Below, piece after piece: positions 11,598 to 38,887 of a DNA stretch of 64,000 nucleotides. Numbering within the stretch: the first letter of the stretch is position 1; each line of letters begins with the position of its first letter. The notes beneath the pieces were generated by a model, which searched no databases, had not been told where the DNA came from, and saw nothing but the letters and a program-made list of their open reading frames with translations. Made by a program: the position numbers and the translations under genes. The DNA comes from Vicinamibacteria bacterium (GTDB lineage: Bacteria > Acidobacteriota > Vicinamibacteria > Marinacidobacterales > Marinacidobacteraceae): contig OY729431.1 of assembly GCA_963422395.1 (NCBI GenBank), forward strand, positions 352,001 through 416,000, given 5' to 3'.

Positions 11598-11713
11598 GAC
11601 GCGGGGACTTGCCAGTATCGCCGGAGCACCGGCGAACGAGGGCGCCGGCCCACGAACCGGTGCCGCCGCTTTCTTTGCGCGCCGGTTTTGCGGGCACTAC
11701 CATCTTATGCGCG

Positions 11714-13930
11714 ATGTTCCTGCGATCCGGGCTGGCAGTGCTGACCTTTGCGGCGATCTGCTCCCCCGGAGCAGGTGCCGCGAATTCTGCCGGGAACCTG
11801 CGGGCGCCCCGGCAGGAACCGAACGAGAAGGAGCAGATCGAAGCCCTTCCCGAACATCACCGGGTCTGGCTCGTCGAAGAGGTCCCGTATCTCATCACCG
11901 ACCGCGAAAAGCGGGTCTTTCTGACCCTGACTTCCGAGCGCCAGCGCGACTCGTTCGTTTCCGCCTTCTGGCGCAAGCGGGATCTCAACCCCTCGACTCC
12001 GGAGAACGAGTTCCGAGACGAGCACTACGAACGGCTGGACTATGCGAACAACTGGCTCGGGCGCGACACCTTCCGGGAGGGCTGGGAAACGGACCGCGGC
12101 CGGTATTACATCCTGCTCGGCAAGCCGCGTTCGATCCAGAACTACGAAGCCCGCGACGAGATCTATCCGACGGAACTGTGGTTCTACAACAACTCCGAAC
12201 TGAAGCGTTTCGGCCTGCCGGCGTTCTTCTACCTGCTGTTCTGGCGCCGCCACGGGGTGGGGGAGCTGCAGCTCTACGACCCCATCTCGGACGGTCCGCC
12301 GGCGCTGCTGACCGGCTACCAGCCCGAGCGGCAGGACTTCCGCAACGAGGTGGAGCGAGCCTACGAGATCCTCTACGAGTTCGACCCCGAGGTCGCGAAC
12401 GCGGCGATGTCCTTCCGCACCGACGAGCAGGACATCACCCGCTTCCAGGCGGTGCCCTTCGGCACCCTTTCCCTGCTCCAGGACATCCATGAGGTGCCCT
12501 TCCGGGGTCTCGACGACAGCTACGCCGACCGGCTCGATTTCGAGAAGGGAGCGATCGAAGCCGACTACCTCTTCACCTATGTCCCCGGCCACGGAGCGAT
12601 GGCGGTCCTCCCCGGGCCCGAGGGGGCTTCGTTCCTCCACTGGGTCATCCAACTGGATGCCCAGCACACTGCCTTCGTGCGGAACGAGGATCGCGGCACC
12701 TTCGACACCGCTTTCATCGGGACCGTGGATATCGTCCTCCGCGACTCCCCGGAGCAGGTGGTCACCGAATTCCGCAAGGAATCCTTCGTCTCGCTGGACG
12801 ACGAGCAGCGCGCCGCGCTCCAGCGCCCGTTCTCCTGGGCCGGGGTGGTTCCGCTCATTCCGGGGGACCACACCGTCCGGATCGTGCTCCGGAACCGGGC
12901 CTGCGGTTCGCGCTCCGAAACGGACTGCTCCAAGAGTTACACCCTCGTCGAGGCGGAGGTGAGCGCTCCGCCGGCGGACGGCGCGCCGCGGCTCAGCGAC
13001 CTGGTGCTCGGGCGGCGCATCGAACCCCAGCGTCCGCAGTACCGCCCTTTCCGGCTCGGCTCCGCCGGCGTGGTCCCCAACCCGCAGGCGGTATATGCGA
13101 TAGGTGAGAATTTCGTTGCCGCCGCCGTGCCCGAGGGCGCCCCGGAAGGCGCGCGGGTCCGCTTCCGGATCGTGAGCCGCGAGCCGCTCACCGACGGCGA
13201 GCTGGCCTACGAGAGCGAGGCGCCGGCGGCGGCGGACGAGGCGAGCGGTTTCGTGGCGCTCGATTTTCCGCTGCTGGACATCGGGGCCGGCCGCTACGAG
13301 CTGGGTGCCGAGCTGCTCGACCGCGCGGGGGGTGTCCTGTCTTCGAGACGCGCCGGGTTCACGGTGTCCCCCCGAGGCAACCTCCTCGAGGCCGGTTTCC
13401 ACGGCACGATGCTTCCTTTTCCGCCGGAGAATTCGGGGTTCACGAGTCTCGCGATCGGCGAGCAGTGGATGGGTCTCGACCGCGGGGAGGAAGCCGGGCC
13501 GGTGCTCGAACGAGCGCTCGCCCTGGCCCCTCGGCTCGGGCGCGCCCGGGAACTGCTCGCCCGTCTCGAGATGGAGGCGGGGCGGGCCGACCGGGTGGTC
13601 GAGCTGCTCGAACCGGTGTACGCCGAGGTCCAGGATCGCTACGACCTGGTGCGGGTCCTCGGAGAGGCGTACTTTCAGCTGGCCCGCTACGAGGACGCCG
13701 AGGACCTGCTCGGCAAGGCCGTCCTTCTCGAAAATCCCGACCCCAGGAGCCTCAACCTGCTCGGCCTCGCCCGCTTCCAGGTCTCCGATTTCGCCGGCGC
13801 CCGCGAAGCGTTCCAACGCTCGCTCGCGCTCGATGGCGAACAGCCGGAAGTCGAAGAGGCCCTGGCCCGCGTCGGCGAAGCCGAACGAGCCCAGCCCTCC
13901 TCCCGCCCGCCGGGTGCAGGGGCACGATGA
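11714..13930 (+). CDS. GWxTD-domain protein with C-terminal TPRs
   Basis: WLVEEVPYLIT, FW.KRD..P.T.ENEF..EHY.R..YAN, GWETDRGRYYILLGKP, signal peptide. Confidence 0.9.
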   Translation: MFLRSGLAVLTFAAICSPGAGAANSAGNLRAPRQEPNEKEQIEALPEHHRVWLVEEVPYLITDREKRVFLTLTSERQRDSFVSAFWRKRDLNPSTPENEFRDEHYERLDYANNWLGRDTFREGWETDRGRYYILLGKPRSIQNYEARDEIYPTELWFYNNSELKRFGLPAFFYLLFWRRHGVGELQLYDPISDGPPALLTGYQPERQDFRNEVERAYEILYEFDPEVANAAMSFRTDEQDITRFQAVPFGTLSLLQDIHEVPFRGLDDSYADRLDFEKGAIEADYLFTYVPGHGAMAVLPGPEGASFLHWVIQLDAQHTAFVRNEDRGTFDTAFIGTVDIVLRDSPEQVVTEFRKESFVSLDDEQRAALQRPFSWAGVVPLIPGDHTVRIVLRNRACGSRSETDCSKSYTLVEAEVSAPPADGAPRLSDLVLGRRIEPQRPQYRPFRLGSAGVVPNPQAVYAIGENFVAAAVPEGAPEGARVRFRIVSREPLTDGELAYESEAPAAADEASGFVALDFPLLDIGAGRYELGAELLDRAGGVLSSRRAGFTVSPRGNLLEAGFHGTMLPFPPENSGFTSLAIGEQWMGLDRGEEAGPVLERALALAPRLGRARELLARLEMEAGRADRVVELLEPVYAEVQDRYDLVRVLGEAYFQLARYEDAEDLLGKAVLLENPDPRSLNLLGLARFQVSDFAGAREAFQRSLALDGEQPEVEEALARVGEAERAQPSSRPPGAGAR

Positions 13931-14279: not shown

Positions 14280-15848
14280 CTACTCCGAACCGAGAGCGAC
14301 GATCGGATCCAGCCGCGCCGCACGCCGCGCCGGTACCAGCCCGGCGACCACTCCGGTCGCGAGCGCTACCACGAAGGCGAGCCCCCCGGCTCCTGCCGAG
14401 ATTTCGACCCGCAGCCCGAAAGCGTCCTGGACCAGAAGCGCGGCTGCCGCTCCCAGTGCGACCCCGAAGAGCCCGCCGGCTGCGCCCAGCAGCACTGATT
14501 CCGTGAGGAACTGGCTCCCCACATCCCCGGTCCGCGCCCCCACTGCCATCCGCAACCCGATTTCCCGGATCCGTTCCCGGACGGAGAGCAGCATCACATT
14601 CGAGATCCCGATGGCGCCTACCAGCAGCGAAACCAGGGCGATGGAGAGGAGCAGCGCCGACATGGTCCGGCTCGACTGTTCCAGAGTGGCCGCCAGCTGG
14701 CGCAGCGTCGTTCGTTCGAGGTTCGGGATGTTTCCGGCGAGCGTCTGGGCCACTTTCGGATGGAGTCCCTTCCCGAGCACTTCGGATGCCTGGGTCGAGA
14801 CGGTGAAATCGTCGGCCTGCGCTTCGCCGATCCCATGCCGTTCACGCAGCAGCTCGGTGATCTCCCGAGCGACCTCGGTGACTCGGCCCGAGGAAGCGGC
14901 GGTCACCGTGATGGTGTTCAGGTTCGTCAGATTCAACAGCCGGTGGACGGTGGTGAAGGGGGTGTACACCGCGTCGAATTCATCGTCCCCCGGCACCCCC
15001 GGGTTCAGCCAGTTCGAGCTCGCCACCACCCCGACGACTTCGAAGGTCTGGTTCCAGATGGTGACCTCGCGGCCCACCGGGTCTTCTTCCTGGCCGAACA
15101 GCTGGTCGCGGGCCACGCTCCCGAGCACCGCCACCTGCTCCGCTCGGCGCAGCTCGCGGGCGCTGAAGAACCGCCCGTGCTGGATCGCGAACGAGCGGCG
15201 GATCTGCACCAGATCCACCGCGGTACCGTGCAGCCGGGTGAACCATCGGCGCTCGCCGCGAAAGACCCGCACGCTTTCGTGGACTCCGGGGGCTGCCTGG
15301 GCCACCCCGGCGAGCGCGCCGAGCGCGTCGGCGTCGTCCCGGGTCAGGGTGGCTGCGGCGCCGAGTCCGGCGGCCGAATCCCCGAGGCGTTCGGCAGCGG
15401 TCGGATGGTCGTGCTTCTCCATCGGATCGTTTTCGGGATGGGCGCGCGCCACCGGCTCGAGGCGCCGCCACAGTTTCCGCAGCATCTCCGACGGGAGCAG
15501 CCGGCCGTGCCGGATGGGAGCATCGATGCCGCCGATCGGCCGTTCCCCGCGGGCGCGGTAGTTGCCGGCCGTCACCTGGATCACATTCAGCCCCGCCGCC
15601 TGCACCTGCTCGCTGATCGCTGCCTGCGCTCCCCGCCCGAGCGCGATCGTCGCCATCAGCGCTGCCACTCCGAAGGCGAGGCCGATCAGGGTCAGTGCGG
15701 TGCGCAGGGGATAGCGCCGCAGGCTCTGGAGAGCCGTTTCCCCGGCGGTCCGCCGCTCGATGACGAGTTCCGGACGGGAGAGCCGCCGGAGCAATCTCGA
15801 AAAACGCCCGGCAGGCGGCTTTCGGTTGGGCATCTTTCGGTTGGGCAT
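14280..15848 (-). CDS. MacB/FtsX-type ABC permease
   Basis: LRTALTLIG.FGVA, VGAIGISNVMLLSVRERIREIGLRMAVGA, QFLTES, PARRAARLDPIVAL. Confidence 0.9.
   Translation of the reverse strand: MPNRKMPNRKPPAGRFSRLLRRLSRPELVIERRTAGETALQSLRRYPLRTALTLIGLAFGVAALMATIALGRGAQAAISEQVQAAGLNVIQVTAGNYRARGERPIGGIDAPIRHGRLLPSEMLRKLWRRLEPVARAHPENDPMEKHDHPTAAERLGDSAAGLGAAATLTRDDADALGALAGVAQAAPGVHESVRVFRGERRWFTRLHGTAVDLVQIRRSFAIQHGRFFSARELRRAEQVAVLGSVARDQLFGQEEDPVGREVTIWNQTFEVVGVVASSNWLNPGVPGDDEFDAVYTPFTTVHRLLNLTNLNTITVTAASSGRVTEVAREITELLRERHGIGEAQADDFTVSTQASEVLGKGLHPKVAQTLAGNIPNLERTTLRQLAATLEQSSRTMSALLLSIALVSLLVGAIGISNVMLLSVRERIREIGLRMAVGARTGDVGSQFLTESVLLGAAGGLFGVALGAAAALLVQDAFGLRVEISAGAGGLAFVVALATGVVAGLVPARRAARLDPIVALGSE
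15819..15848. repeat. Perfect 15-bp tandem duplication including the start codon (MPNRK x2)
   Basis: CTTTCGGTTGGGCAT at 15819-15833 and 15834-15848. Confidence 0.9.
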
Positions 15849-15855
15849 CTTCCGC

Positions 15856-16563
15856 TCAGCAGCCGGAGCTCTCTCCTGCGTTCTCCTCGAGGATCCGCCC
15901 GTCCCGCAATTCGACGCTCCGAGAGGCGTACTGCGCCACCTGCCGGTCGTGGGTGATCATCACCACAGTGAGCCCCCGTTCGGAGTTGAGGCGTGCGAAG
16001 GTGTCGAGGATCTCGCCCCCGGTCTGGGTATCCAGGTTGCCGGTGGGTTCGTCGGCGAGGAGAAGGCGCGGCCGGTTGGCGAGCGCCCTGGCGATGGCGA
16101 CCCGCTGCTGCTGTCCGCCCGAGAGCTGGCTCGGTGCGTGGGCCGCGCGGTCGGACAGCCGGACCGCGGCGAGCGCTTCTGCGGCCTGCTGACGCCGTTC
16201 GACCCGCCCTGGCCGGCGGGTTCCGTAGAGCATCGGAAGCTCCACGTTCTCGAGGGCGCTCGCCCGGGCGAGCAGGTGGAAGCTCTGGAAGACGAAGCCG
16301 ATCTCCTCGTTACGGATGCGCGCCCGTTCGTCGTTGTCCAGCCGGGACACATCGCGTCCCATGAGTCGGTATTCCCCGGAAGTGGGCTGATCGAGACAGC
16401 CGAGGATATGCATCAGGGTGCTCTTTCCCGATCCCGAAGGGCCGAGAACGGAAAGGAAGTCCCCCTCCTCCACCGAGAGGGAGAGCCCTCGCAGCGCCTC
16501 CACCCGGTGGTCTTCGCCGAGGACATAGGTCTTCACCAGATCCCGGACTTCGATCGCGTCCAT
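15856..16563 (-). CDS. ABC ATP-binding protein (MacB/LolD type)
   Basis: GPSGSGKST, IGFVFQSF, LSGGQQQRVAIARAL, LLADEPTGNLD. GGAGG RBS precedes the ATG at 16563. Confidence 0.95.
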   Translation of the reverse strand: MDAIEVRDLVKTYVLGEDHRVEALRGLSLSVEEGDFLSVLGPSGSGKSTLMHILGCLDQPTSGEYRLMGRDVSRLDNDERARIRNEEIGFVFQSFHLLARASALENVELPMLYGTRRPGRVERRQQAAEALAAVRLSDRAAHAPSQLSGGQQQRVAIARALANRPRLLLADEPTGNLDTQTGGEILDTFARLNSERGLTVVMITHDRQVAQYASRSVELRDGRILEENAGESSGC

Positions 16564-16656
16564 CGACAATCCTCCGCGCGGCTTCGTTCCGGAACCCGAT
16601 GAGCCAGAAACCATCGGGTCAGGAGGCCGGGTCGGAAAATCGGAAAGGGAGTCTGG

Positions 16657-18357
16657 TCAAGGAGCGGGTTCGGAAACCTCTTCTTGCTCTTCCTCCGCAG
16701 GGGCGTCGGGCAGCAGTCCCGCGTAGGCGTAGAGGAAGGTCGCCACCGTCTTCTCGCCGCCGGCCATCCCGTACACCTCACCCGCTCCCTCGATCACCCA
16801 GAACTCGTTCGCCGCGTGGGCGCCCCCGCCGTGTCCCCCGGCTCCGCCCACGATCGGCATGGCGAGATCCGTCCCGTCCGGGAGCGAGCCGTCTCTCCCG
16901 CTGAACAGATATGCCGGCCAGTAGCCCCCGAGGATGGATTCGCCCTCGATCGGCTGCCGGTAACGGATGTCGAAGATGTCGTAGGTACGCAAGAGCGACT
17001 CCGCCGCACGGTTGTCGTAGTTGGATTTCGACCACGGGACATCGCCGACGATCGTCATCTCCACATCCTCGTATCCCTGCTCGTCGAGGTAGTCGCGGAC
17101 CTTCTGCACCATGGCCAGCCCGTCCTGGCCCGGCACATAGCGGATGTTGTGCTTGGAGGTGATCCGGTTCGGCAGGATCGCGCCGGCCCCGCCGGGGTAC
17201 ATGTTCCCGGCCCAGACCCCGTCCATGTTGAAGGAGATCCCGTAGCGCGCGTTCTTCAGATGCTGCAGCGGATCGTCGGTCATGAAGCGGGCCACCCCGA
17301 TGTTCTCGGCGGCGACCGTGAGGTCCAGGTTTTCCGCCGCGCTTCGGAACATCGCCTCCTCGGCGGGGGTCAGCGGGGCGGCGCCGTCGTAGAAGCCGGG
17401 CACCAGCACCCGGTTTCCGTCGTCGGAGATCAGGGTGGACAGCATCTTGATGTGCCGCAGCGCGGGAGCGTCGGTGGAGCGCTTGTGGGCGCCGTGGATG
17501 TTCGAGGCCAGCGGACCCCGGCCCCAGCTCGCCCCGCTCGTCGTCAACTCGATGTACACGCACCCCTCCGAACCGCCGCCGATCCCGGCGGCCCCGGAGC
17601 GCGACTGCGACCCGAAGCGGTACATGGCCTCGGCCTCTCGGAAGAGCTCGGGGTTCTCCCGCACGAACTGGCGCAGGCCGATGGACATCCGCTCCTCGTC
17701 CCCCTCGGCGACGAAGATCAGGTTCACCGGCATCGAGCCCGTCACCTCGTAGATCGAGTGGAAGGCGTTCCACTGGGTCATCTGCGGCCCCTTCGAGTTC
17801 GTGGCACCCCGCCCAACCATCACTTTCTGGAACGGACCGAACTCGGTCAGCTCGCCGTCGAACGGCGGCAGCACCCAGGCCTCGGGCTGGGTGATCGGCA
17901 TCGTGTCGTACATCCAGTAGATGAGCAGCGTCCGCTCCTGTCCGTAGTCGCAGTTGGCATAGACGACCGGGTTGCCCGGCTGCCCCCACTCGGTCATGGG
18001 AATGTCGTACACCTGCGACTGCTGGCAGCCGAGCTGGTCGAAGAAGCCCTTGACCATCTGGGCGGACTCGGGGATGCCCTCGCCGGAGTTGGAAATGCTG
18101 GGCTGCTGGATCCAGCGGCGGAGGTTCGTCACATGGCGGTCCACGTTCTCGTCGATGTGGGCGAACACCTGCCGCAGTTCCTCGGGGAGCTGTTCGAGGT
18201 CGGGGGCGATCTCGGTGTCGCCCTGCGCCCGGATCCCGAGAGTCTCCCCGGCGGCTGAGCCCGCCTCGTCCTCCGCCTCCGGCGCCCCGCAGCCGTAAAT
18301 GGCCAACCCGGAAAGGGCCAGCGCCAACACACCGCATCGAAACGCTTCGGGCATCAT
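16657..18357 (-). CDS. M20/M25/M40-family metallo-hydrolase, predicted lipoprotein
   Basis: Lipobox LAIYGC, IQQPSIS, GNPVVYA, MYDTMP, GRGATNSKG, EGDEE, AHAANE. Confidence 0.85.
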   Translation of the reverse strand: MMPEAFRCGVLALALSGLAIYGCGAPEAEDEAGSAAGETLGIRAQGDTEIAPDLEQLPEELRQVFAHIDENVDRHVTNLRRWIQQPSISNSGEGIPESAQMVKGFFDQLGCQQSQVYDIPMTEWGQPGNPVVYANCDYGQERTLLIYWMYDTMPITQPEAWVLPPFDGELTEFGPFQKVMVGRGATNSKGPQMTQWNAFHSIYEVTGSMPVNLIFVAEGDEERMSIGLRQFVRENPELFREAEAMYRFGSQSRSGAAGIGGGSEGCVYIELTTSGASWGRGPLASNIHGAHKRSTDAPALRHIKMLSTLISDDGNRVLVPGFYDGAAPLTPAEEAMFRSAAENLDLTVAAENIGVARFMTDDPLQHLKNARYGISFNMDGVWAGNMYPGGAGAILPNRITSKHNIRYVPGQDGLAMVQKVRDYLDEQGYEDVEMTIVGDVPWSKSNYDNRAAESLLRTYDIFDIRYRQPIEGESILGGYWPAYLFSGRDGSLPDGTDLAMPIVGGAGGHGGGAHAANEFWVIEGAGEVYGMAGGEKTVATFLYAYAGLLPDAPAEEEQEEVSEPAP

Positions 18358-18463
18358 CGGAAATCTCCTCAGAAAATCGAGACCGGAGTGCGGCCGTTCG
18401 TAACTTCCAGCACCATCGGCGCCAGCAGACCAGACGACACGCCGGACGACAGAGGGAGAAGAT

Positions 18464-19738
18464 ATGCGGGCGTCCTCCGCCGTGTCAAAGATACGAGCCG
18501 TCTTCTGGTGCTGGGCCTTCGCTGCGGCGTTCGCCTGCGGTCCGCCTGCCCGGGCTCCCGCGGACGCCTCTCCCCGGACCGCCGACGCCCTCGCGGAACG
18601 CTACGTCCGGTTGGCGTTCGCGCTCGACGCCCTCGATCCTCTGTTCCTCGATCTGGTCTTCGTTTCCGCACCAGCCGGCCTGCGAGGTAGCGACGGAAGC
18701 CCGGCGCTCTCGCTCGCCGAAATCGCGGAACGCGCCGGTCGCCTCGCCGAGGCTGCGGGAGGCATCGCGCGCACCGAGGACGAATTCCGCGTGCGCCGGA
18801 TCACCGCTTCGATTCGGGCGTTGGGCTTTCGCGCCCGCGCGCTGCTCGGCGAACGCCGAACGGTTCGGGAGGAGTTGCGCGAGGTGTTCGGCCTCGACTG
18901 GACCGAGCCGGCCATCGCCCTCGAACGCCTCCACTTCCGGGTGGACCGCGCCCTTCCCGGAGTGGGGCCGCTCCGGGTGCGGGTCCGCCGGCACTACGAA
19001 CGGGCCGGCGTTTCCAGCGAGAGCGCTTCTTCCTCCCTCGCCGAGGCCCTCGCCCGGTGCCGCGCGCGGATGCTCCCGGAGCCGGCGCCGCTCGCGCTCG
19101 AACCGCTGCGCCTCGCGTGGGTCCCTCCTGCCGCTGCGTCGCGGCTGCCGACCGGACCGGCACCCTTCTACCGCTATGAGGGGGCGGGGCGCGGGGTGCT
19201 CCGGTTGCCTGCCGGCCTCGCTTTCCGGCCTGGGGAATTCGACCGGCTCGCCTGCCACGAGGGGGTCCCCGGCCACCATTTGCAGGCAGTGGTCGCCGAT
19301 CGGCACTTCCGCGCCACCGGCTGGCCGGAACTGGGGATCGTCCCACTCTACGGGCCGCGCACTGCGGTGTTCGAGGGCCTCGCCGCGACCTTCGAGCGGT
19401 TGGCGCCCGCCGATGCTGCGGACGAAGCTCTCCGGGATCTCGAACCGGTCGTCACCGGGGTGCTCGCCCGCTACCTCGACGGCGAACTCGGCCGTCTCGA
19501 GGCGCTGCGGGCTCTCGATTTCGAAGCGCTCGTTCCCGATCCGCATGCTCTCCTCGACCACGCCGACCGCTTCGGGGGGTACGCTTTGGTTCGGCCCCCG
19601 GCCGATCCCGTGTTCCGCGCCGCTCTCGAAACCCTGCTCGACCCCGGCCTCAGTCGGGATGACCGCTTCCGAACCACCGTGCGGGTTATCCGGGAGGCGA
19701 TGAGCCCGCGGGAACTCGTGGAGGTGCTGGGGCGATGA
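18464..19738 (+). CDS. DUF885-like zincin lipoprotein
   Basis: Lipobox-like AFAC, LACHEGVPGHHLQ, downstream EGLA. Confidence 0.6.
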   Translation: MRASSAVSKIRAVFWCWAFAAAFACGPPARAPADASPRTADALAERYVRLAFALDALDPLFLDLVFVSAPAGLRGSDGSPALSLAEIAERAGRLAEAAGGIARTEDEFRVRRITASIRALGFRARALLGERRTVREELREVFGLDWTEPAIALERLHFRVDRALPGVGPLRVRVRRHYERAGVSSESASSSLAEALARCRARMLPEPAPLALEPLRLAWVPPAAASRLPTGPAPFYRYEGAGRGVLRLPAGLAFRPGEFDRLACHEGVPGHHLQAVVADRHFRATGWPELGIVPLYGPRTAVFEGLAATFERLAPADAADEALRDLEPVVTGVLARYLDGELGRLEALRALDFEALVPDPHALLDHADRFGGYALVRPPADPVFRAALETLLDPGLSRDDRFRTTVRVIREAMSPRELVEVLGR

Positions 19739-20283
19739 GACGCCTCGCTGCCCTCCCTGCGATTTGCCTGTTCTCCTGTTGTCTGTTCGCCTGCGGAGTG
19801 CCGGGTGAAGATCCAGACGCCGCCGGTGGCATGGATGGGACGGCTGGGATGGGCGGTATGGCGATGGCACACGGCGACCATTCTCCCCGCTATGGCGGCC
19901 ATGTGTTCATGCACGGCGATCTCCACTTCGAGGTCGTGCTCGGCGATAGCGGCGAACACCGCATCTACTTTTCGGACGCGATGCGGAGTGAGTTGCCGGC
20001 GGCAGTCGCCGAAGATGTACGGATCACCTTGCGGCGTGGTGGAGAAGGCGGGGAACTCGAACCACTCCGTCCCGAGATCGACGAGTTCGGCGAAGCCTGG
20101 GTGGCGCGCAGCCGCCCCATCGAGAGTGAAGACACTGCGGCCATCGTGTACTTCCGCTTCGAAGGCTCTCCTTACGAAATCGAAGTCCCCTACCTCATGG
20201 CGCCGCCCACGGTGGACCCGCATACCGGCAGGCTGCTTCCGGCGGCGCCCCCTCCGGATCCCCGCGGCGGTTCGGCGCCCTGA
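19735..20283 (+). CDS. His/Met-rich hypothetical lipoprotein
   Basis: Lipobox LFAC, GMDGTAGMGGMAMAHGDHSPRYGGHVFMHGDLHFEVV. ATGA overlap with the upstream gene. Confidence 0.7.
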   Translation: MRRLAALPAICLFSCCLFACGVPGEDPDAAGGMDGTAGMGGMAMAHGDHSPRYGGHVFMHGDLHFEVVLGDSGEHRIYFSDAMRSELPAAVAEDVRITLRRGGEGGELEPLRPEIDEFGEAWVARSRPIESEDTAAIVYFRFEGSPYEIEVPYLMAPPTVDPHTGRLLPAAPPPDPRGGSAP

Positions 20284-20418
20284 TCGCCGGCAAATCCGGA
20301 CGGTGGACTCGATGAAGTGATTCGCCGGCGGATCCTGGCTCGTGACCGGCGGAACCCGCTTGTCCCGATGGAGCCGAGCGCCGCGGAGTAGGGCCGAAAA
20401 CTCCGCCCCGAAGCGGGC

Positions 20419-21765
20419 CTACTCGGAGCGCAGCGCCACGATCGGATCGAGTCTCGACGCTCGCCGGGCGGGGTACCAGCCGAAAAAGACTCCGACCCCC
20501 GCTGCCAGCGTTGCGGCTCCCGCGACCGCGAGCGCCGGGATCAGCGTGCGCCAGCCGAGCAGCGCCTCGACCACCGAGGAGGAAAGCCCGCCGATCGCGA
20601 CCCCGAAGATTCCGCCCAGTACCGAAAGCCCCACCGCCTCGGCGAGGAACTGCCACATGACATCGCGCCGCCGCGCCCCCACCGCGAGCCGCAGTCCGAT
20701 CTCGCGGGTCCGCTCGGTGACTGCGAGCAGCATCACATTCATGATTCCGACGCCGCCCACGATCAGCGAGACGCCGGCGAGCGCTCCGAGCAGGAGCGTC
20801 ATCGTCGAGGTCGCCCGGTTCAGTGTGCCCACCATCTCTTCCGAGGTCACTTCGTCCAGTTTCGGCATCGAGGCGAGTACGAAGGCCGCCGCAGTGGTGT
20901 AGAGCCCCTGGGTCAGCGCCGAAGTGGCTTCGGTTCGTACCACGAAGTCGTCCGGCAGCCGCGCCCCGCGCCGGAAGGCGTGCGGTGCGTCGGACTCCGG
21001 AGGCGGTGCGGAGCGAGTCAGTTCGTGCCGTTCGCGCAACAGGTTCGACACGGCCCGCGCTACCCGAGAAGCGTCGCCGGCGCGCTCGGTTGCGATCGCC
21101 ACCGCCTGCAGATAGTCCCTGCCCACGAGTTCGAGCAACACCGGATAGGGGACCATGACCGCCTCGGCGAGCCGCCGGTCCGCCGACTGATAGACCCCGG
21201 CCACCTCGAATTCCCTCCCCCGGATCACCACCGTGCGCCCCACTGCAGATCCGCCGGGAAACAGTTCGGTCTCCACCGGGCCGGAGAGGAGCGCCGCCGG
21301 GCGCGCCTGCCGGACCGCTGCCGCGCCGAAGCTCCCCCCGTCGAGGAACCGCACCTGGTGGATCGAGGCGGCCTCGGCCGAGACTCCGAGGATCTGCGCG
21401 AACGATTCCCCGCTTTCCGACAGCAGCGCGGTTCGCTCCTCGACCACCGGGCTCACCATCGCCACTTCGGCGACCCCGCGGATCGCCTCGGCGTCTTCCA
21501 CGGTCAGAGTGTCGGCCCGTCCGAACCCCGAGGGGATGTTGACCGCGTCGCCGCCGCGGATGTAGTTGCCGGCGCGGACCACGATGATGTTCGTGCCGGC
21601 GGACCGGACTTCGTCCGCCACCGCCGCTCGCGCTCCCGAACCGAGAGCTGCCATCGTGATCACCGAGGCGACCCCGATGACCAGCCCGGTCAGCGCCAGC
21701 GCAGTCCGCAGCGGGTTCGCGGCGAGAGCCGCTCCTGCGGTTCGCAGCGGGAGGGGCGCTTCCAT
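20419..21765 (-). CDS. MacB/FtsX-type ABC permease
   Basis: NPLRTALALTG.IGV, VGGVGIMNVMLLAVTERTREIGLRLAVGA, YPARRASRLDPIVALRSE. Confidence 0.92.
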   Translation of the reverse strand: MEAPLPLRTAGAALAANPLRTALALTGLVIGVASVITMAALGSGARAAVADEVRSAGTNIIVVRAGNYIRGGDAVNIPSGFGRADTLTVEDAEAIRGVAEVAMVSPVVEERTALLSESGESFAQILGVSAEAASIHQVRFLDGGSFGAAAVRQARPAALLSGPVETELFPGGSAVGRTVVIRGREFEVAGVYQSADRRLAEAVMVPYPVLLELVGRDYLQAVAIATERAGDASRVARAVSNLLRERHELTRSAPPPESDAPHAFRRGARLPDDFVVRTEATSALTQGLYTTAAAFVLASMPKLDEVTSEEMVGTLNRATSTMTLLLGALAGVSLIVGGVGIMNVMLLAVTERTREIGLRLAVGARRRDVMWQFLAEAVGLSVLGGIFGVAIGGLSSSVVEALLGWRTLIPALAVAGAATLAAGVGVFFGWYPARRASRLDPIVALRSE

Positions 21766-21862: not shown

Positions 21863-22041
21863 TTGACAAGGGCCGACCCGATTCAAGATACTCGCCGATT
21901 CGGTTTCAAAAAACCGAATTCTCTCCTCTGTCCTTGATCCGACGGCGGGCGAGAACTCCGCGATGGACACCGTAACCCCATGATTTTTAGTCTTCGCGGA
22001 GTGAATCGGGCATGTTTTGCAGAGCGCGGCCCACTTGTTGC
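21863..22041 (+). promoter_or_regulatory. Upstream regulatory region of the TonB-dependent receptor (palindrome, IHF-like site, sigma54-like box; alternative sigma70 promoter)
   Basis: TTGACA 21863-21868 with GATACT 21887-21892. Perfect inverted repeat ATTCGGTTT-N4-AAACCGAAT 21898-21919. AATCATGGGGTTA on the minus strand at 21973-21985. GG-N10-GC box CGGCCCACTTGTTGC 22027-22041. Confidence 0.45.
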
Positions 22042-22101
22042 GGTTCTGCTCACATCTTTCCCCAGTTCCATGCTTCCGACCCCACAGGAGGACCAAACAG
22101 C

Positions 22102-25005
22102 ATGAGAAAATCGATTCTCTTCAGCCTGCTGTTGGCTTGGCCGGCCTCGGCCTTCAGCCAGCAGATCTACGGGCGCCTCGAAGGCGCTGCCAACGACGCG
22201 CAGGGCCTCGTTCTCCCCGGAGTGACGGTCACCCTCGAATCCGAGGAACTCGTTGCCCCGCGGACGGCCACCACCGATGTGGACGGCTCCTACCGGTTCG
22301 CCCAGCTCGTCGCTGGCAGCTACGACCTGACCTTCGAGCTCGGCGGTTTCCAGACGGTCGTCTTCGAAGACGTCATCGTGGTCGGCGGTTCGACCTTCGA
22401 GATCAACGCCTCGATGGACATCGCTACGGTCGCCGAGACAGTGACCGTGACCGGCGAGTCGCCGGTGGTGGATGTGAAGACCACCGGGGTGTCGGCGACT
22501 TTCGACACCACCCAGCTCGAGGATGTCCCATCGGCTACCGACATGTGGGCGGTTCTTCAGCAGAGCCCCGGCGTCCGGATGCGCGGCTACGATGTGGGGG
22601 GATCCCACAAGAGCCAGCAGTCCGGCTACGAGACCTTCGGCGTCCGCGGCCAGAACCGGATCATCAACGATGGGGTGAACACCACCGAGGGCACTGGCGG
22701 CGCCGGCGGCTACTACGACTTCTACGCCATCGGCGAGTTCCAGGTGTCGGCACAAGGTGCCGATGTGGAGATGTCGACCCCAGGCGCGCAGGTGAACGCA
22801 GTGTGGAAGAGCGGCGGCAACGACTTCTCCGGCACTCAGCACGGGGCTTGGGAGCCTGCCGATTGGATCGCCGACAACATCACCTCTGACCTTTCTTCCC
22901 GCGGCGGGACATCGGCTCCGGTCGTCGAGTTCTACGAATATCACCTCGATCTGGGCGGTCCGATCGTGCGGGACAAGGCGTGGTTCTACGCGGCGTACAA
23001 CCGCTTCGTCATCGACCGGATCATCTCCGGACAGGATCCGAGTGTTGCCACCGATCTCGGTGACTTCGACATGTTCACCGTCAAGGCCAACGTGCAGCTG
23101 ACCGAGCGGGATCAATTCATAACCTTCCATCATTGGTCCTTGAAACAAAAGCCGTTCCGTGGGTTGTCTGCCAATGTTCCGGCCGAATCCATCCGCGCCC
23201 AGGATTCCTGGACTTGGTTGCACAAGGCCGAGTGGCAGCGCGTGTGGAGCGATCGGCTCTACTCGAACATCCAGGTGAACCATTTCGGCTTCGGCTGGCC
23301 GATGGTCCCTGCGGTGGACCCGGCCTCTGCTCCCCCTCGTATCGATCTCGGGACGGACAAGTTGACCGGTGCCGGTTGGGGAGTCTTCACCTGGTATCGC
23401 TGGAAACCGCATTCCACCGGCCAGTTCAACTACTACCTGCCCACGGATGCAGGTAGCCACGACTTGAAGTTCGGATGGGATTGGCAGATCGACGAATCGC
23501 AGTTCGGTTGGAATTCGAATTCCGGTGCTATTCGATACCGCGATGACAGCAACCAGGATCCAGCGAGGCCTCACAATGTGAGGGAAGTGGATTTCTGGAG
23601 TGTTCCCAACCTGAATTACGACCGGAACACCCATCTGGATTTCTTTCTCCAGGATGTGTGGACCATCAACGATCGACTGACACTGAATGCAGGTGTCCGA
23701 GTCGGAAGCCAGTTCATGGCGTACCTCGATTCCGACAATGTTCCTGGCGGACCTTGCGTCGATGGTCTCGGGTGTGTTCGTGAGATCGCCGATATCGATC
23801 CGAATGTGGCAGCTGCGCTTCCGCAGTTGTTCGGGCCTGGTGCTCCGGTGTCGGGAGACTCCGTCATCAACTGGTGGAATATCGCTCCGCGAGTGGGCTT
23901 CACCTACGATCTCACCGGCGAAGGGCGGTCCGTTCTCAAGGGTTACTGGGGCCGTTACTACAGCAACATGGGAACAGGGATCGACGATGCCAATCCAGGA
24001 AGCAACAAAAATGTTCGGTACGAATTCCTCGACCACAATGAGAACGGTTTGTTCGACGGCGTCGGAGAGCTCGGAGCGCGGCTCTCGGGCAGTACGGGGG
24101 CAGGTTTGGGCGTGGAGCGTCCCGAACCTGTGGGGGATCCTGTCGACTCCGGTCTCTGGGTGCCTCATGTGGATGAACTGAGCCTTTCTGGTGAGCACCA
24201 GCTCGGTGCCGATCTCGGATTGCGTGCCTCTTTCGTGCACAAGCGCCAGACGGGTGGCTGGGACAACCTGAATATCGCCAGGATAGGAACGCTCACGAAC
24301 ACGCAGAATGTTCCGTGCCCGGCAGCCTGCGACACGGCCGGATTCGGCGGCACCACTCTTGCTGTGAATGGCTTGCCCGACGGCGCCCCGACCAGCGAGA
24401 ATCTGTATACGAACACTCCGGACGGAGAGTCCGATTTCCGATGGAGTACGGTATCCCTCGGGGTCAATCGCCGCTTCCGGAACAACTTCTTCTGGAATGC
24501 CTACTTCGACTATCAGTGGCGGCATGAAGGCCGGACTCCGGGCCAATCCACCAGCCCCCTGACTACCGACCCGGTGGGCGTCGGTTGGAGCTATCCGTAC
24601 GGTCCGATCTCCCTGATTCAGGATGTAACGAACTGGCAGTTCAAATCCGCCGGACGGTATGTCATGCCATACGACATCGGTACAGCAGGTACTCTTCGTT
24701 TCGTCAGCGGCTTTCCGTGGGCACCCTTGCTCTCGATCGGCGTTCCGAATGTCGGCAATCAGACGATTTTCCTCGACGATATCGGTAACCGCAGGTCCGA
24801 TAATGTGATGATTCTGGACTTCCGTCTCGACAAGACTTTCCCCATCGGAAACACGGCGGAGATTCAGCTGATCGCAGACGTTTTCAACGCACTGAACAAC
24901 GCTTCCGAAACGAACTTCAACATGAGTGCCGGCAGTGCGTTCCGGGAGCCCATCGAATGGATCCAGGGGCGCACGATCGGATTCAGCGCGAGGTTGACTT
25001 TCTAA
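22102..25005 (+). CDS. TonB-dependent receptor-like outer-membrane protein with carboxypeptidase-regulatory N-domain
   Basis: AGGAGG RBS, signal peptide, G.VLPGVTVT, ETVTVTGESPVVD, LGGPIVRDKAWF, APRVGFTYDL, terminal ARLTF. Confidence 0.9.
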   Translation: MRKSILFSLLLAWPASAFSQQIYGRLEGAANDAQGLVLPGVTVTLESEELVAPRTATTDVDGSYRFAQLVAGSYDLTFELGGFQTVVFEDVIVVGGSTFEINASMDIATVAETVTVTGESPVVDVKTTGVSATFDTTQLEDVPSATDMWAVLQQSPGVRMRGYDVGGSHKSQQSGYETFGVRGQNRIINDGVNTTEGTGGAGGYYDFYAIGEFQVSAQGADVEMSTPGAQVNAVWKSGGNDFSGTQHGAWEPADWIADNITSDLSSRGGTSAPVVEFYEYHLDLGGPIVRDKAWFYAAYNRFVIDRIISGQDPSVATDLGDFDMFTVKANVQLTERDQFITFHHWSLKQKPFRGLSANVPAESIRAQDSWTWLHKAEWQRVWSDRLYSNIQVNHFGFGWPMVPAVDPASAPPRIDLGTDKLTGAGWGVFTWYRWKPHSTGQFNYYLPTDAGSHDLKFGWDWQIDESQFGWNSNSGAIRYRDDSNQDPARPHNVREVDFWSVPNLNYDRNTHLDFFLQDVWTINDRLTLNAGVRVGSQFMAYLDSDNVPGGPCVDGLGCVREIADIDPNVAAALPQLFGPGAPVSGDSVINWWNIAPRVGFTYDLTGEGRSVLKGYWGRYYSNMGTGIDDANPGSNKNVRYEFLDHNENGLFDGVGELGARLSGSTGAGLGVERPEPVGDPVDSGLWVPHVDELSLSGEHQLGADLGLRASFVHKRQTGGWDNLNIARIGTLTNTQNVPCPAACDTAGFGGTTLAVNGLPDGAPTSENLYTNTPDGESDFRWSTVSLGVNRRFRNNFFWNAYFDYQWRHEGRTPGQSTSPLTTDPVGVGWSYPYGPISLIQDVTNWQFKSAGRYVMPYDIGTAGTLRFVSGFPWAPLLSIGVPNVGNQTIFLDDIGNRRSDNVMILDFRLDKTFPIGNTAEIQLIADVFNALNNASETNFNMSAGSAFREPIEWIQGRTIGFSARLTF

Positions 25006-25074: not shown

Positions 25075-25409
25075 CGATGTTGCCCGTGAACCTCGAGACG
25101 TCGCGGGTTCGACAGATGCTTGCCCGATCGGATCTGAGCGCGACCGAGGAAGATGGCGGGGTGCACTGGATCGTCGAGACGAAAGGCCGAAACGCAACGA
25201 TTAGCCCCGTGAAACGGGGCGGTTCAGCCGGGGCCCCACCGGGAGAACTGGGCCGCGTGACTTCATCCACAGGCTGCTAGCTGTGACCTTGCGGTAGGTT
25301 GTTCACGCGAGCCCGATGCCCGGAACTCATGGGTATCCACGATCTCTCAGCAGGAGGAGGCCGAGCGGGTCGGGCATCCTCGCGGGAGCGGGTCTCGTAC
25401 CCTTGCCGA

Positions 25410-26846
25410 ATGGGGCCTTCCGATCCGGGCTCTTCGCCTGCGAAACCTGCGAAACATCGGGAGGAGGGCAGCCGGGGACTCGACATCTATGCCGTCCTCG
25501 CTGGGCTGATCGCCGCTGCGGCACTTGCGACCTGGATCCTTCCGGCGGGGCGCTACGAGCGCACGGTGCTTCCCGACGGGCGGCAAACCGTGGTGCCCGG
25601 GTCCTACCGGGTGGTCGAGTCCTCCCCCGCCGGGTTCTGGGAGGTCGTGACCGCCATTCCCGACGGCCTGGCCGACGCCGCGAGCGTAGTCTTCCTGGTC
25701 TTCCTGGTCGCCGGTTCCGTGGGGGTGATGCGCCGGGCCGGGATCCTCGATCTCGGGGTGGACCGGCTCATCGCGGCGACCGGTCGGCGCGTGGAGCTGC
25801 TGATTCCAGCGCTCATGTTCGCCTTCGCCGCGGTCTCTGGAGTCGTGGGGATGCCCGAGCTCTCCATCGCCTATCTGCCGATCGTGCTGCCGCTCTTGCT
25901 GCGGTTGGGATGCGGAAGGGCGACGGGAACGGCGGTGGCCCTGCTCCCGACGACGCTGGGTGCGGCCTTCGGAGTGACGGTGCCGGCGACGGTCGGGATC
26001 GGTCACCTGCTGGCGGAGCTACCGCTGTTCTCCGGCGCCTCCTACCGATTCCTGTTCTTCCTCATCGTGCAGACGGCGGCGGCGGTCTTCGTGGTCCGGC
26101 GGGCGCGCCGCGAGATCGCCGGTTCGCACCGAACCGGACTGCCCCCCGGCCCGATGCGGGCGCGGGAGGAGGGGGAAGCGGCGGCGCCGGCGGGTTTCAG
26201 CCGCCGGCAGCAGGCGGCGGGCTTCCTCGCGCTCGGATCGTTCTCTGCTCTGGTGGTTTCGGTCCTCACTCTCGGCTTCGGGTTCGCGGAGATCTCCGGG
26301 GCCTTCGTCGCCATGGCGGTCGTCGTTTCGCTGGTGGCCGGCCGCGGGGTGAACCGGATCTGCTCCGACTTCAACGAGTCCTTTCGGGAAATCCTCGTCG
26401 GGGCGCTGGTCTGCGGGGTAGCTCGGGGCGTCTCGGTAGTGATGACCGAGGGGGCGGTCATGGACACGATCGTCCACGGCGCCGCGCTGCTGGTTTCCTC
26501 GCTGCCGCCCGCGCTCACCGCGGTCGGCATCCTCCTGGGGCAGACGCTCTTCAACTTCCTCGTGCCTTCGGGAAGCGGGCAGGCACTCATCACCCTGCCG
26601 ATCCTGGTGCCGGTCGGCGACCTCGCCGGAGTGACCCGGCAGGTCGTGGTGCTCGCCACCCAGTGGGGCGACGGGATCACGAATATCGTCTTCCCGACTT
26701 CCGGCTATTTCATGGCCACCCTGGTGATGGCGCGGGTGGGGCTCGGGGAGTGGCTGCGGTATTACCTTCCGCTCTTCGCCGTCGTCCTCGCCGTTGCGGC
26801 CGCCGGGCTCGCGCTGGCGCAGGCGGTGGCGCTCGGGCCGTTCTGA
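25410..26846 (+). CDS. YfcC/DcuC-family membrane transporter
   Basis: ATWILPAGRYER, TVGIG..LAELPLFSG..YR, NFLVPSGSGQA.IT.PIL.P, Q.GDG.TN..FPTSG. Confidence 0.85.
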   Translation: MGPSDPGSSPAKPAKHREEGSRGLDIYAVLAGLIAAAALATWILPAGRYERTVLPDGRQTVVPGSYRVVESSPAGFWEVVTAIPDGLADAASVVFLVFLVAGSVGVMRRAGILDLGVDRLIAATGRRVELLIPALMFAFAAVSGVVGMPELSIAYLPIVLPLLLRLGCGRATGTAVALLPTTLGAAFGVTVPATVGIGHLLAELPLFSGASYRFLFFLIVQTAAAVFVVRRARREIAGSHRTGLPPGPMRAREEGEAAAPAGFSRRQQAAGFLALGSFSALVVSVLTLGFGFAEISGAFVAMAVVVSLVAGRGVNRICSDFNESFREILVGALVCGVARGVSVVMTEGAVMDTIVHGAALLVSSLPPALTAVGILLGQTLFNFLVPSGSGQALITLPILVPVGDLAGVTRQVVVLATQWGDGITNIVFPTSGYFMATLVMARVGLGEWLRYYLPLFAVVLAVAAAGLALAQAVALGPF

Positions 26847-38872: not shown

Positions 38873-38887
38873 TCGGAGGGGAGCACG

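Follow-up and report, generated by a model that had tools for sequence, protein, structure and literature searches.

What do two MacB-type permeases do when they are served by a single ATPase, have no adaptor beside them and are encoded together with three lipoproteins? This question is raised by a locus in the 64,000-nucleotide stretch of Vicinamibacteria (Acidobacteriota) DNA analysed here, hereafter the window. A sequence-only reading had named and placed the genes and quoted peptide strings from both permeases; the genes lie where it put them, and the strings are found in the translations. The features are as follows.

14280..15848, minus strand: Perm1, a MacB-type permease of 522 aa, with TM1, a periplasmic core domain and the FtsX 3-TM domain
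14703..14789, minus strand: the insert of Perm1, preceding the TM2 stalk; residues 354-382 of the translation
15375..15440, minus strand: Perm1-specific His/Asp/Met-rich loop (HPENDPMEKHDHP...ERLGDS), early in the periplasmic domain
15856..16614, minus strand: the single ABC ATPase, a MacB/LolD-type NBD, 7 nt upstream of Perm1
16657..18357, minus strand: M20-family lipoprotein with a remodelled metal site, heading the ABC operon
18358..18463, no strand: divergent intergenic region of 106 nt between the M20 operon and the DUF885-like-HisMet unit
18464..19738, plus strand: DUF885-like zincin-motif lipoprotein of 424 aa, holding HEGVPGHH
19735..20283, plus strand: HisMet, a small His/Met-rich lipoprotein that carries an HGDH motif and folds as an Ig-like beta-sandwich
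20419..21765, minus strand: Perm2, a MacB-type permease of 448 aa, monocistronic here
20842..20928, minus strand: the insert of Perm2, preceding the TM2 stalk; residues 280-308 of the translation
22102..25005, plus strand: TonB-dependent-receptor-like outer-membrane protein, divergent from Perm2

The locus is not one operon but three transcription units spread over both strands: M20, ATPase and Perm1, in that order, on the minus strand; the DUF885-like gene and HisMet, with ORFs overlapping by 4 nt, on the plus strand; and Perm2 by itself on the minus strand. No motif was found in the 106-nt intergenic region. The receptor gene does start at 22102 (+), opposite to Perm2, as the earlier reading had it, and its product matches OMP_b-brl_4 (E 5.5e-31) and CarboxypepD_reg (E 2.4e-14), with Plug at 19.7 bits, under the cut-off.

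The six-gene cluster is conserved in several families within one class of Acidobacteriota, the Vicinamibacteria. In 49 well-flanked loci (at least 8 kb on either side), which are kin and were located through HisMet, itself among the genes counted, the partners present are Perm1 in 47, Perm2 in 47, the ATPase in 45, M20 in 46 and the DUF885-like gene in 45; all five accompany HisMet in 42 of the 49, a strong co-occurrence that bears out the predicted gene neighbourhood. The arrangement varies. Perm1 adjoins Perm2 on the same strand in 32 of the 59 loci holding both, in other orders both permeases belong to a single operon, five loci (L057, L070, L074, L090 and L099) have the whole set of six on the same strand, and in some genomes the lipoprotein genes are inside the ABC operon, with M20 as its first gene. 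Gene order is retained even though identity falls to 27-30% for the DUF885-like protein and 52% for Perm2.

Orthologues of Perm2 were found in 24/24 genomes of the same family and in 6/8 genomes of a second. In the four genomes where the cluster is scattered, both permeases, M20 (4/4), the DUF885-like gene (4/4) and HisMet (4/4) are all present, and the ATPase is still beside Perm1 (4/4). In a sister family, five genomes without Perm1 and Perm2 orthologues yielded no HisMet orthologue and only M20 paralogues of 32-35% identity. The gene set is thus gained, lost and retained as a unit, and HisMet is its most faithful marker. No conserved neighbour family besides the six genes and the receptor was seen in the fetched loci; the receptor, with a relative within the fetched DNA in 26 of the 49 well-flanked loci, is a frequent but not constant companion.

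Perm1 (MacB_PCD E 1.2e-34, FtsX E 2.3e-19) and Perm2 (MacB_PCD E 6.5e-29, FtsX E 1.3e-18) are old paralogues with 40% identity, each a group of its own: in a quick tree, 29 Perm1 rows fall on one side of a branch and 29 Perm2 rows likewise (SH-aLRT 95 and 99), and the two together separate from 24 insert-less relatives (SH-aLRT 99). There is only one ATPase gene; its product matches ABC_tran (Pfam, E 1.8e-34), with MacB NBD (248 bits) and LolD (237.7 bits) as top NCBIfam matches. Shared operons, the tree, the single ATPase and co-retention make the earlier proposal of a heteromeric, adaptor-less type VII ABC with two permeases and one ATPase well supported. The His/Asp/Met loop of Perm1 (consensus HPEDDPMEKHDHPTA.QRLGD in alignment A5, with H137 and P142 conserved at 90% or more) is missing from Perm2 in alignment A2. 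This conserved loop was counted toward the metal theme discussed below.

The best relative in both sequence and structure is MacB of MacAB-TolC (5gko, E 1.8e-51; NCBIfam MacB model, 183-203 bits), which has the same periplasmic core and FtsX domains. MacB, however, is a homodimer and works with a MacA-type adaptor, whereas the permeases here would form a heterodimer, their ATPase is a separate gene and the cluster encodes no such adaptor. The claim of one ATPase and no adaptor holds within the locus itself, where there is no periplasmic adaptor gene, but not for its surroundings: an HlyD-family adaptor lies at 35344-36951 in the window, 13.6 kb off. That proximity, and the finding that MacB-like efflux permeases are the nearest relatives in sequence, would suit an ordinary pump of the MacB type, serving efflux of or resistance to a small molecule or peptide, with its adaptor encoded elsewhere and the lipoprotein genes adjacent through shared regulation. 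Yet the HlyD adaptor heads a complete operon of its own, a self-contained pump that also comprises an ATPase and a pair of MacB-type permeases lacking the insert, while the lipoprotein genes remain linked to the ABC genes from family to family even where the cluster is rearranged, sometimes in a shared operon, and the parts are lost together. We therefore regard an ordinary pump as very improbable.

Both permeases were said to share an extra segment of about 30 residues. It is 29 residues long in each, follows the last periplasmic strand, precedes the TM2 stalk, and is absent from solved MacBs. Perm2 aligns with solved MacB in two pieces (13-248 and 307-447) that are separated by 7 residues in the structure; opposite this 7-residue link stand residues 249-306 of Perm2 (about 58), 29 of which are the conserved insert. 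Insert-less MacB-like permeases show a 31-column gap at the site in alignment A2, and the segment is rare among MacB-like permeases, which speaks for the earlier reading: of 104,827 relatives, the best 150 include only about 17-20 that have it. It has conserved positions across 61 Perm1 orthologues, and GLYT, LA.MP.LD and adjoining positions are conserved in 64 Perm2 orthologues. In the Perm2 structure model this segment forms two short helices, but pLDDT is <50 for residues 286-306, so that the structural role of the insert is a guess. Its place is the hinge that joins the periplasmic domain to the TM2 stalk, through which transporters of this class transmit ATP-driven movement to the periplasm.

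A heteromeric ABC with two paralogous type VII permeases, one ATPase, no adaptor and lipoproteins as obvious partners matches the parts list of LolCDE. Perm1, Perm2 and the ATPase might accordingly be a dedicated sorter that extracts these lipoproteins from the inner membrane for the outer membrane or cell surface, where they would work with the receptor; the lipobox Cys conserved in all three companions (HisMet, M20 and DUF885-like) and the position of the hydrophobic insert, adjoining the membrane-proximal stalk, are consistent with this. However, the LolCE model scores Perm1 at 19.2 and Perm2 at 28.1 bits against a cut-off of 362.45, no LolA/LolB-like carrier is among the conserved neighbours of the fetched loci, and the lipoprotein alignments show no evident common sorting signal behind the Cys. 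With a separate, far better LolCE-like gene elsewhere in the genome (313 bits), we consider such a sorter decidedly unlikely. Neither the insert nor the His-rich loop is known from Lol proteins. By the same comparison of scores, Perm1 and Perm2 were rejected as the genome's general Lol system. FtsEX, with its activators EnvC, PcsB and RipC, is likewise an adaptor-less type VII ABC, thought to act mechanically on periplasmic partners; FtsX, though, acts as a homodimer, FtsX models reach at most 22.6 bits here against cut-offs of 225-255, and the partners here are not coiled-coil activators.

The companions had been described as three metal-site lipoproteins. All three genes are present, as is the HEGVPGHH motif, but the M20 metal site is non-canonical. 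The M20 protein (Peptidase_M20, 32.3 bits; cut-off 24.6) has an invariant lipobox Cys, and its catalytic EGDEE and C-terminal HAANE are conserved. Compared with 4mmo and 2zof, its first His ligand is replaced by Met (66 of 70 orthologues; Gln in the other 4) and the bridging Asp by Asn (70/70), so two of the five canonical M20 zinc ligands are substituted in every orthologue, which makes its earlier designation as a hydrolase doubtful. The Met/Asn pattern also occurs in four M20 paralogues of 30-33% identity from genomes without the cluster; it is therefore not specific to the cluster and cannot be taken for an adaptation to it. For the DUF885-like protein, about 40 residues surrounding a single motif carry the assignment to DUF885, a family with no known function: the DUF885 match is sub-threshold (E 3.4e-4, 20.8 bits against 32.4), 18 of 34 orthologues match at E<=0.01, and the nearest named Atlas cluster is DUF885 (0.87). 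H265, E266, P269, G270, H271, H272, E289 and E304 are invariant in the 34 sequences; the protein is a putative hydrolase.

These enzyme-like proteins could be taken as the heart of a peptide-scavenging island, in which the receptor imports peptides, the M20 and DUF885-like lipoproteins trim them as periplasmic peptidases, metal is a mere cofactor, and the ABC and HisMet serve the pathway, for example in product export or in tethering or activating the peptidases. The closest folds of the M20 protein are indeed di- and carboxypeptidases (Sso-CP2, E 8.3e-29; also CNDP2, carnosinase and DUG1), its EGDEE and HAANE and the invariant HExxPGHH zincin motif of the DUF885-like protein fit such a role, as does the receptor when nearby, and the window also holds a DcuC/AbgT-like carrier (25299-26846) and an M3 peptidase (40226-42382). 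The uniformly altered M20 ligands argue against it, however, and HisMet would be left without a role. The DcuC-like carrier is not among the conserved neighbour families of the fetched loci, and no MacB-type ABC is known to be an importer. On balance this explanation appears unlikely.

HisMet has no Pfam or NCBIfam match, nor any sequence match to a metal-binding family, and all of its 201 homologues are named merely "hypothetical protein". Its invariant residues include C20, H46, D48, H49, M59, H64, E66, H75, D81 and W122. The structure model (pLDDT 81.6) gives middling fold matches, headed by DUF4426, a protein of unknown function (Z 10.5), and including CrdA (Z 9.6), HftA/FtrA-P19/Tp34 (Z 8.2-8.9) and CopC (Z 7.4), as well as carbohydrate-binding modules (Z 8.4-9.2); a Foldseek search with the model found nothing at E<=0.001. 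In its own genome a paralogous HisMet domain is fused to the heavy-metal-binding domain HMBD (Pfam, E 5.4e-12), and in two other acidobacterial proteins the domain follows a His-rich run or CPMH/CPxC motifs. HisMet is thus a putative metal-related protein, and for it the metal theme is supported.

The closest architectural parallel is with FetBCD of the P19 iron-uptake system (FetMP-FetABCDEF), which likewise combines two paralogous MacB_PCD+FtsX permeases with one ATPase, lacks an adaptor, and is encoded beside a periplasmic beta-sandwich metal-binding protein. An acidobacterial P19 locus has the order FTR1, P19, FtrD-like membrane protein, two MacB_PCD+FtsX permeases, ATPase, Fur, again with no adaptor, and its ATPase is 46% identical to that of this cluster. 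When iron is limiting, Campylobacter jejuni depends on the ATPase and on both Fet permeases (PMC10783030); neither permease is dispensable, and no substrate is known for them (PMC10783030, PMC6083913). Unlike the Fet system, this cluster encodes neither an FTR1 permease nor P19 (PF10634), and neither an FtrD-like membrane protein nor thioredoxins, and because a PF10634 search of this genome gave no match anywhere, the parallel is one of architecture, not whole-system homology. Furthermore, the Fet permeases lack the insert (PCD-FtsX gap of about 30 residues versus 88 in Perm2 and 70 in Perm1), M20 and DUF885-like partners are missing from the Fet system, and HisMet resembles P19 in fold only (Z 8.9, 6-9% identity).

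As a gene set the module is well supported, and it is apparently undescribed. The set itself and its conservation, the insert, the changed M20 ligands and the HisMet fold are shown. We give a probability of about 0.4 to our preferred reading, a heteromeric, adaptor-less type VII ABC that works with metal-handling lipoproteins in envelope metal handling. One Perm1 and one Perm2 would be paired in it and driven by the single ATPase in two copies, and the machine would most likely not pump a solute across the inner membrane. A precedent in concept is copper insertion by NosDFY-NosL, where an ABC without solute transport takes a lipoprotein metallochaperone and a client metalloenzyme through a periplasmic cycle; the likeness is by analogy, NosFY being a different ABC type and no proteins being homologous as far as our searches show. 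The ABC described here may act in the periplasm with three dedicated lipoproteins, namely HisMet as a small beta-sandwich metal binder, the M20-fold protein with its remodelled di-zinc site, and the DUF885-like protein; we infer the heterodimer, its contact with them, the metal and the direction of its action. Its most likely job would be the handling of copper, zinc or iron in the envelope, with metal either passed between HisMet and the two enzyme-like lipoproteins or freed from an imported chelate, much as the FetBCD ABC accompanies the metal-binding protein P19.

The gene families of the locus, which lies in a region of about 69% G+C, were confirmed with Pfam and NCBIfam.

Genes of the locus (positions in the window)
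14280-15848, minus strand: Perm1, a MacB-type permease matching PF12704 and PF02687
15856-16614, minus strand: ABC ATPase with a MacB/LolD-type NBD match
16657-18357, minus strand: M20-family lipoprotein matching PF01546
18464-19738, plus strand: DUF885-like lipoprotein with an HExxPGHH motif and a sub-threshold PF05960 match
19735-20283, plus strand: HisMet, a small His/Met-rich lipoprotein without a Pfam match
20419-21765, minus strand: Perm2, a second MacB-type permease matching PF12704 and PF02687
from 22102, plus strand: TonB-dependent-receptor-like protein with a PF25183 barrel match

The sequence-only reading had placed these genes correctly; they are divided among three transcription units on both strands and do not form a single operon. 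One unit runs from the M20 gene through the ATPase to Perm1, with intergenic gaps of 42 and 7 nt. The second, divergent from the M20 operon, consists of the DUF885-like gene and HisMet, which overlap by 4 nt, while Perm2 is a single-gene unit that faces HisMet tail to tail and the receptor gene head to head.

Of 40 relatives, all 24 from the same family have orthologues of Perm1 and Perm2, as do six of eight from a second family. In a third family, which belongs to the same order, no orthologue was found in any of eight genomes, one of them unpublished (G033). Five genomes of the permease-less family lack a HisMet orthologue, giving domain-level matches only (E 1e-6 to 1e-7), and their M20 relatives are paralogues at 32-35% only. 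A synteny sample of 20 stretches, drawn from 17 genomes, shows the full set of six genes (the two permeases, the ATPase and the three lipoproteins) clustered in 6/6 second-family loci and in 8/8 linked loci of the window's own family, six of the latter with a tandem M20 duplicate. In four genomes where the cluster is scattered, M20, the DUF885-like gene, HisMet and an ATPase beside Perm1 are each retained in all four. Identities to the window proteins in the second family are lowest for the DUF885-like protein (27-31%), followed by HisMet (47-56%), Perm2 (51-53%), Perm1 (61-63%), the ATPase (62-65%) and M20 (68-73%).

Scanning species-representative genomes with a HisMet alignment gave 263 loci, of which the best 80 were used; by title these are mostly Vicinamibacteria, Vicinamibacterales, "Candidatus Marinacidobacterium/-ales" and unclassified Acidobacteriota MAGs. 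The counts that follow are of loci that are kin and were located through one member of the gene set, in MAGs of uneven quality.

Partners found near HisMet (best 80 loci; 49 loci with at least 8 kb on each side)
Perm1: 61/80; 47/49
Perm2: 69/80; 47/49
ATPase: 56/80; 45/49
M20: 65/80; 46/49
DUF885-like: 65/80; 45/49
receptor relative: 35/80; 26/49
all five partners of HisMet: 51/80; 42/49

The neighbourhood conservation that had been proposed as a check on the cluster is thus found at 42 of the 49 well-flanked loci. No further neighbour family approaches core-gene frequencies at the 80 loci, the next commonest being formamidase-like proteins (17), MFS transporters (12) and HupE/UreJ_2 (9). The HupE/UreJ_2-domain proteins, of a nickel/cobalt-transporter-like family, lie near the cluster at 9/80 loci (for example L065:18407-19576). 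Of 401 genomes sampled evenly across the phylum, 13 gave a HisMet match, and strong matches (E<1e-35) were confined to the same class.

Gene order is variable. The usual Vicinamibacterales order is M20-ATPase-Perm1-Perm2 on one strand; Perm1 adjoins Perm2 on the same strand in 32 of the 59 loci holding both, and at five loci the six genes are all on one strand. Some loci have a third permease and a receptor inside the operon, and in some Vicinamibacterales loci the third permease is Perm1-like. The M20 gene, single in the window, has a tandem duplicate in most of the genomes that belong to the window's family (L007, L008, L010, L011, L013, L014 and many of the loci L021-L041). An apparent Perm1-Perm2 fusion at L074:6853-9822 (+) was rejected: the C-terminus of Perm1 is read in a different frame there, which makes an assembly frameshift likelier than a natural fusion. 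Taken as a set, the six genes very probably constitute one functional module.

Both permeases had been reported to share an extra segment of about 30 residues before TM2, and this is confirmed, with 29 residues in each window protein that are missing in solved MacB. Perm2 aligns with solved MacB structures in two pieces, 13-248 and 307-447, between which the structure has 7 residues. In an alignment of 18 sequences, the segment common to Perm1-like and Perm2-like proteins corresponds to a 31-column gap in insert-less MacB-like permeases, located between the DDF strand and the TM2 stalk helix. The conserved residues of the insert are GLYT and LA.MP.LD in Perm2 (n=64 orthologues), and G..P..A...L...TL in Perm1 (n=61). 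The AlphaFold model of Perm2 (mean pLDDT 82.1) places two short helices in the insert, but residues 286-306 have pLDDT <50. A conserved loop rich in His, Asp and Met, near the start of the periplasmic domain, is a further feature of Perm1-type proteins.

At E<=0.001, an exhaustive representative search returned 104,827 relatives. Permeases of the usual length, about 405 residues, are matched as two separate stretches, of which the second begins near residue 306-317, whereas about 17 of the best 150 relatives span the insert in one HMMER stretch, as read off the match table. By BLAST coverage 20 of the best 150 span it, at least one of which (the representative permease P0196) is without the insert in the 18-sequence alignment. 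The insert is therefore not a common feature of unrelated MacB permeases, as only about 17-20 of the best 150 relatives carry it.

A quick IQ-TREE tree (quick search only, midpoint root) was built from 29 Perm1 and 29 Perm2 rows, each the window protein plus 28 orthologues drawn at random from the extracted set, and 24 insert-less representatives. Each of the two permease types lies wholly to one side of a branch (SH-aLRT of 95 and 99), and together they are set apart from the insert-less group (SH-aLRT 99). Where loci have a third permease, it branches from deep within the Perm1 side. To judge from these sequences, the pattern fits a history in which the insert arose once and an old duplication followed, its products then being retained as a pair. 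Because there is one ATPase gene and the operons are shared, a Perm1/Perm2 heteromer is the economical reading, and we consider it probable that the ABC is assembled in this way.

The permeases match PF12704 and PF02687 well over the cut-offs, which is the type VII ABC (MacB-FtsX) architecture, and in the Perm2 model the helices are as expected and the periplasmic domain is alpha/beta. The best matches of the ATPase are the MacB NBD (248 bits), LolD (237.7 bits) and FtsE (197 bits). Against the model of MacB proper, NF007826, the permeases score 183.5 and 203.4 bits, in pieces, under an equivalog cut-off of 966 bits, and the ATPase is encoded apart from them, in contrast to the fused NBD-permease of MacB proper. 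A classical MacAB pump was rejected on the lack of an adaptor, the separate ATPase and a family score far under the cut-off. An FtsEX identity was likewise rejected (best FtsX-model score 22.6 bits, cut-offs 225-255). The layout of two paralogous permeases and one ATPase without an adaptor is LolCDE-like. Identity with Lol was rejected, since the LolC/LolE model TIGR02212 gives 19.2 and 28.1 bits under a cut-off of 362.45, and another gene of the same genome scores 313 bits on the LolCE model. These low scores, and the better LolCE-like gene elsewhere, make it improbable that the cluster is a dedicated lipoprotein sorter.

The absence of a periplasmic adaptor, which the sequence-only reading had also noted, holds up: no gene for an HlyD/MacA adaptor lies in the stretch from 10 to 27 kb of the window, and no adaptor family is among the conserved neighbours at the 80 loci. 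The window does contain an HlyD-family gene, which is the first gene of another operon that also includes an ATPase of its own and two MacB-type permeases lacking the insert.

Second MacB-type system in the window
35344-40084, plus strand: the complete system
35344-36951, plus strand: HlyD-family adaptor
within 36483-37715, plus strand: ATPase
37712-38872 and 38888-40084, plus strand: two different insert-less MacB_PCD+FtsX permeases

The genome therefore also has the two-permease/one-ATPase layout in an adaptor-bearing pump. That the cluster is itself an ordinary pump, its neighbours mere bystanders, is very unlikely, given that this HlyD adaptor belongs to another complete pump.

The assignment of the first lipoprotein to the M20 family stands (PF01546, 32.3 bits against a gathering score of 24.6; PDB relatives 4mmo, E 8.3e-29, and 2zof, E 7.9e-23), but the metal site attributed to it is not the canonical dinuclear one, two ligands being replaced. 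By comparison with Sso-CP2 and CNDP2, the first metal His (HxD) is Met149 and the bridging Asp is Asn187, while a Glu-Glu pair (EGDEE) and a C-terminal His (HAANE) are retained. Across 70 distinct orthologues, the metal His site is Met in 66 and Gln in four, and the bridging Asp site is Asn in all 70. None of six PDB relatives has the Met/Asn pattern. It recurs in four M20 paralogues of 30-33% identity (L105-L108) from sister-family genomes without the cluster, and thus marks a wider M20 subfamily rather than the cluster alone. These proteins may represent an as yet uncharacterised M20 subfamily whose metal site is non-canonical.

The DUF885-like lipoprotein matches PF05960 under threshold and only in the surroundings of its motif (20.8 bits, residues 241-281 only; gathering score 32.4), and 18 of 34 orthologues match DUF885 at E<=0.01 (best 4.7e-7). 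Its zincin-like HExxPGHH motif, invariant in 34 sequences, is one that we take to be that of DUF885, an assumption that also draws on the span of the Pfam alignment. The nearest named Atlas cluster is DUF885 (0.87), and a profile search of the PDB gave no match better than E 0.13.

HisMet has 201 homologues at E<=0.001, and among the best 120 of these there is no Pfam domain and no name beyond "hypothetical protein". In 25 members no relevant Pfam match was found even at E<=10, which includes the P19/FetP family PF10634. Invariant residues include the lipobox Cys and the HGDH motif, along with other His, Asp, Glu, Met and Trp positions; HGDH is preceded by a stretch rich in Met in the window's family. 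The model (pLDDT 81.6) shows an Ig-like sandwich over residues 52-156. Foldseek found nothing in the PDB at E<=0.001, and VIA-align gave the matches below, where the scores against CrdA, P19-type proteins and CopC (Z 7.4-9.6) are similar to those of unrelated sandwiches.

VIA-align matches of the HisMet model
DUF4426 protein PA0388: Z 10.5
Helicobacter pylori copper-resistance protein CrdA: Z 9.6, rmsd 3.1, 98 aligned
carbohydrate-binding modules: Z 8.4-9.2
HftA / FtrA-P19 / Tp34 (iron/copper proteins): Z 8.2-8.9
CopC: Z 7.4

The nearest named Atlas clusters, CzcB_N (0.82) and YtkA (0.81), are both <0.9 and serve as leads only. Outside the window, the same genome encodes a 405-residue paralogue (L101:6132-7349, minus strand) in which a Pfam heavy-metal-binding domain (HMBD, E 5.4e-12) is joined to a HisMet-like domain and a helical C-terminal region; two genes away is a Cas6-like gene. 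In other acidobacterial proteins the HisMet-like domain follows either a His-rich run or CPMH...CPxC motifs. Searching with the window sequence found no longer fused forms, a result of little weight, as the genome search did find fused relatives. The Met-rich HisMet tail and the likeness to CrdA and CopC weakly point to copper as the metal.

The fold likeness of HisMet to P19 prompted a comparison with the Fet system, the nearest known parallel. An acidobacterial P19 locus has the order FTR1, P19, FtrD-like membrane protein, two MacB_PCD+FtsX permeases, one ATPase and Fur, and its ATPase is 46% identical to that of the cluster. According to the available passages on Campylobacter jejuni, none of fetB, fetC and fetD is dispensable under iron limitation, FetB and FetC are 28% identical to each other, and a FetB-FetC heteromer of unknown substrate has been proposed (PMC10783030; PMC6083913; PMC7285068). 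The MacB_PCD+FtsX type of the Fet permeases is established here from the acidobacterial locus and not from the passages of PMC10783030, PMC6083913 and PMC7285068. What the two systems have in common is the architecture of the ABC and a sandwich-fold partner, putatively metal-binding in the cluster, but the cluster is without all other Fet parts, and P19 is absent from its genome.

The surroundings of the cluster include the following features.

Features flanking the cluster (positions in the window)
11609-13930, plus strand: GWxTD-domain and TPR protein adjoining Perm1, its position conserved in same-family relatives
21898-21919: perfect 9-4-9 palindrome, ATTCGGTTT-caaa-AAACCGAAT, upstream of the receptor gene
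25299-26846, plus strand: DcuC/AbgT-like carrier, directly after the receptor gene
40226-42382, minus strand: M3 oligopeptidase, further along the window

Upstream of the GWxTD/TPR gene, a TPR protein is encoded along with an FG-GAP/ASPIC protein. The receptor-like protein matches the PF25183 barrel at E 5.5e-31, with a Plug match of 19.7 bits, under the cut-off of 23.9, and a sequence search of the PDB found no relative. Its gene has a G+C of 0.57-0.64 (window 22000-25000) against 0.67-0.71 in the flanks. The palindrome lies directly downstream of a promoter-like TTGACA...GATACT pair and is unique in the genome, and no other copy was seen between the M20 and DUF885-like genes; same-family relatives have a related sequence upstream of the receptor in which arm complementarity is lost. 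Its role may be that of an operator or of an element in the 5' UTR. The carrier and the oligopeptidase would fit a theme of peptide use. A peptide-scavenging pathway is, in our estimate, an unlikely role for the cluster.

We favour, tentatively and with a probability of about 0.4, an ABC that acts on or with the periplasmic lipoproteins in metal handling rather than in solute pumping. A bolder version, which we think unlikely as it stands, would make the type VII ABC the core of a machine that uses ATP to transfer metal in the periplasm. Here the periplasmic domains of Perm1 and Perm2 would cycle in conformation, loading or unloading metal between lipoproteins; the exchange would run between the CopC/P19-like lipoprotein chaperone and the two enzyme-like lipoproteins with their rebuilt metal sites, and the hinge insert and His-rich loop would mediate the cycling. 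If true, such a machine would be a functional counterpart of NosDFY-NosL and the first tractable clue to the role of FetBCD in P19 iron uptake.

As judged from search listings, no description of the cluster was found in the literature. The type VII ABC is itself a known kind; what appears new is its partner set and the lineage-specific hinge insert. Adaptor-less MacB-type ABCs such as LolCDE and FtsEX are textbook transporters that do mechanical work outside the membrane instead of moving solutes, and to our knowledge few distinct kinds exist. The cluster adds a sharply defined one, with three fixed lipoprotein partners, a lineage-specific hinge insert and a putative metal signature. FetBCD is needed by pathogens for P19-dependent iron uptake, and the different, simpler partner set of the cluster could make the question of its role testable. 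Finally, Vicinamibacteria are abundant in soils and marine hosts and little studied, and a conserved envelope module is therefore a useful functional marker for them.
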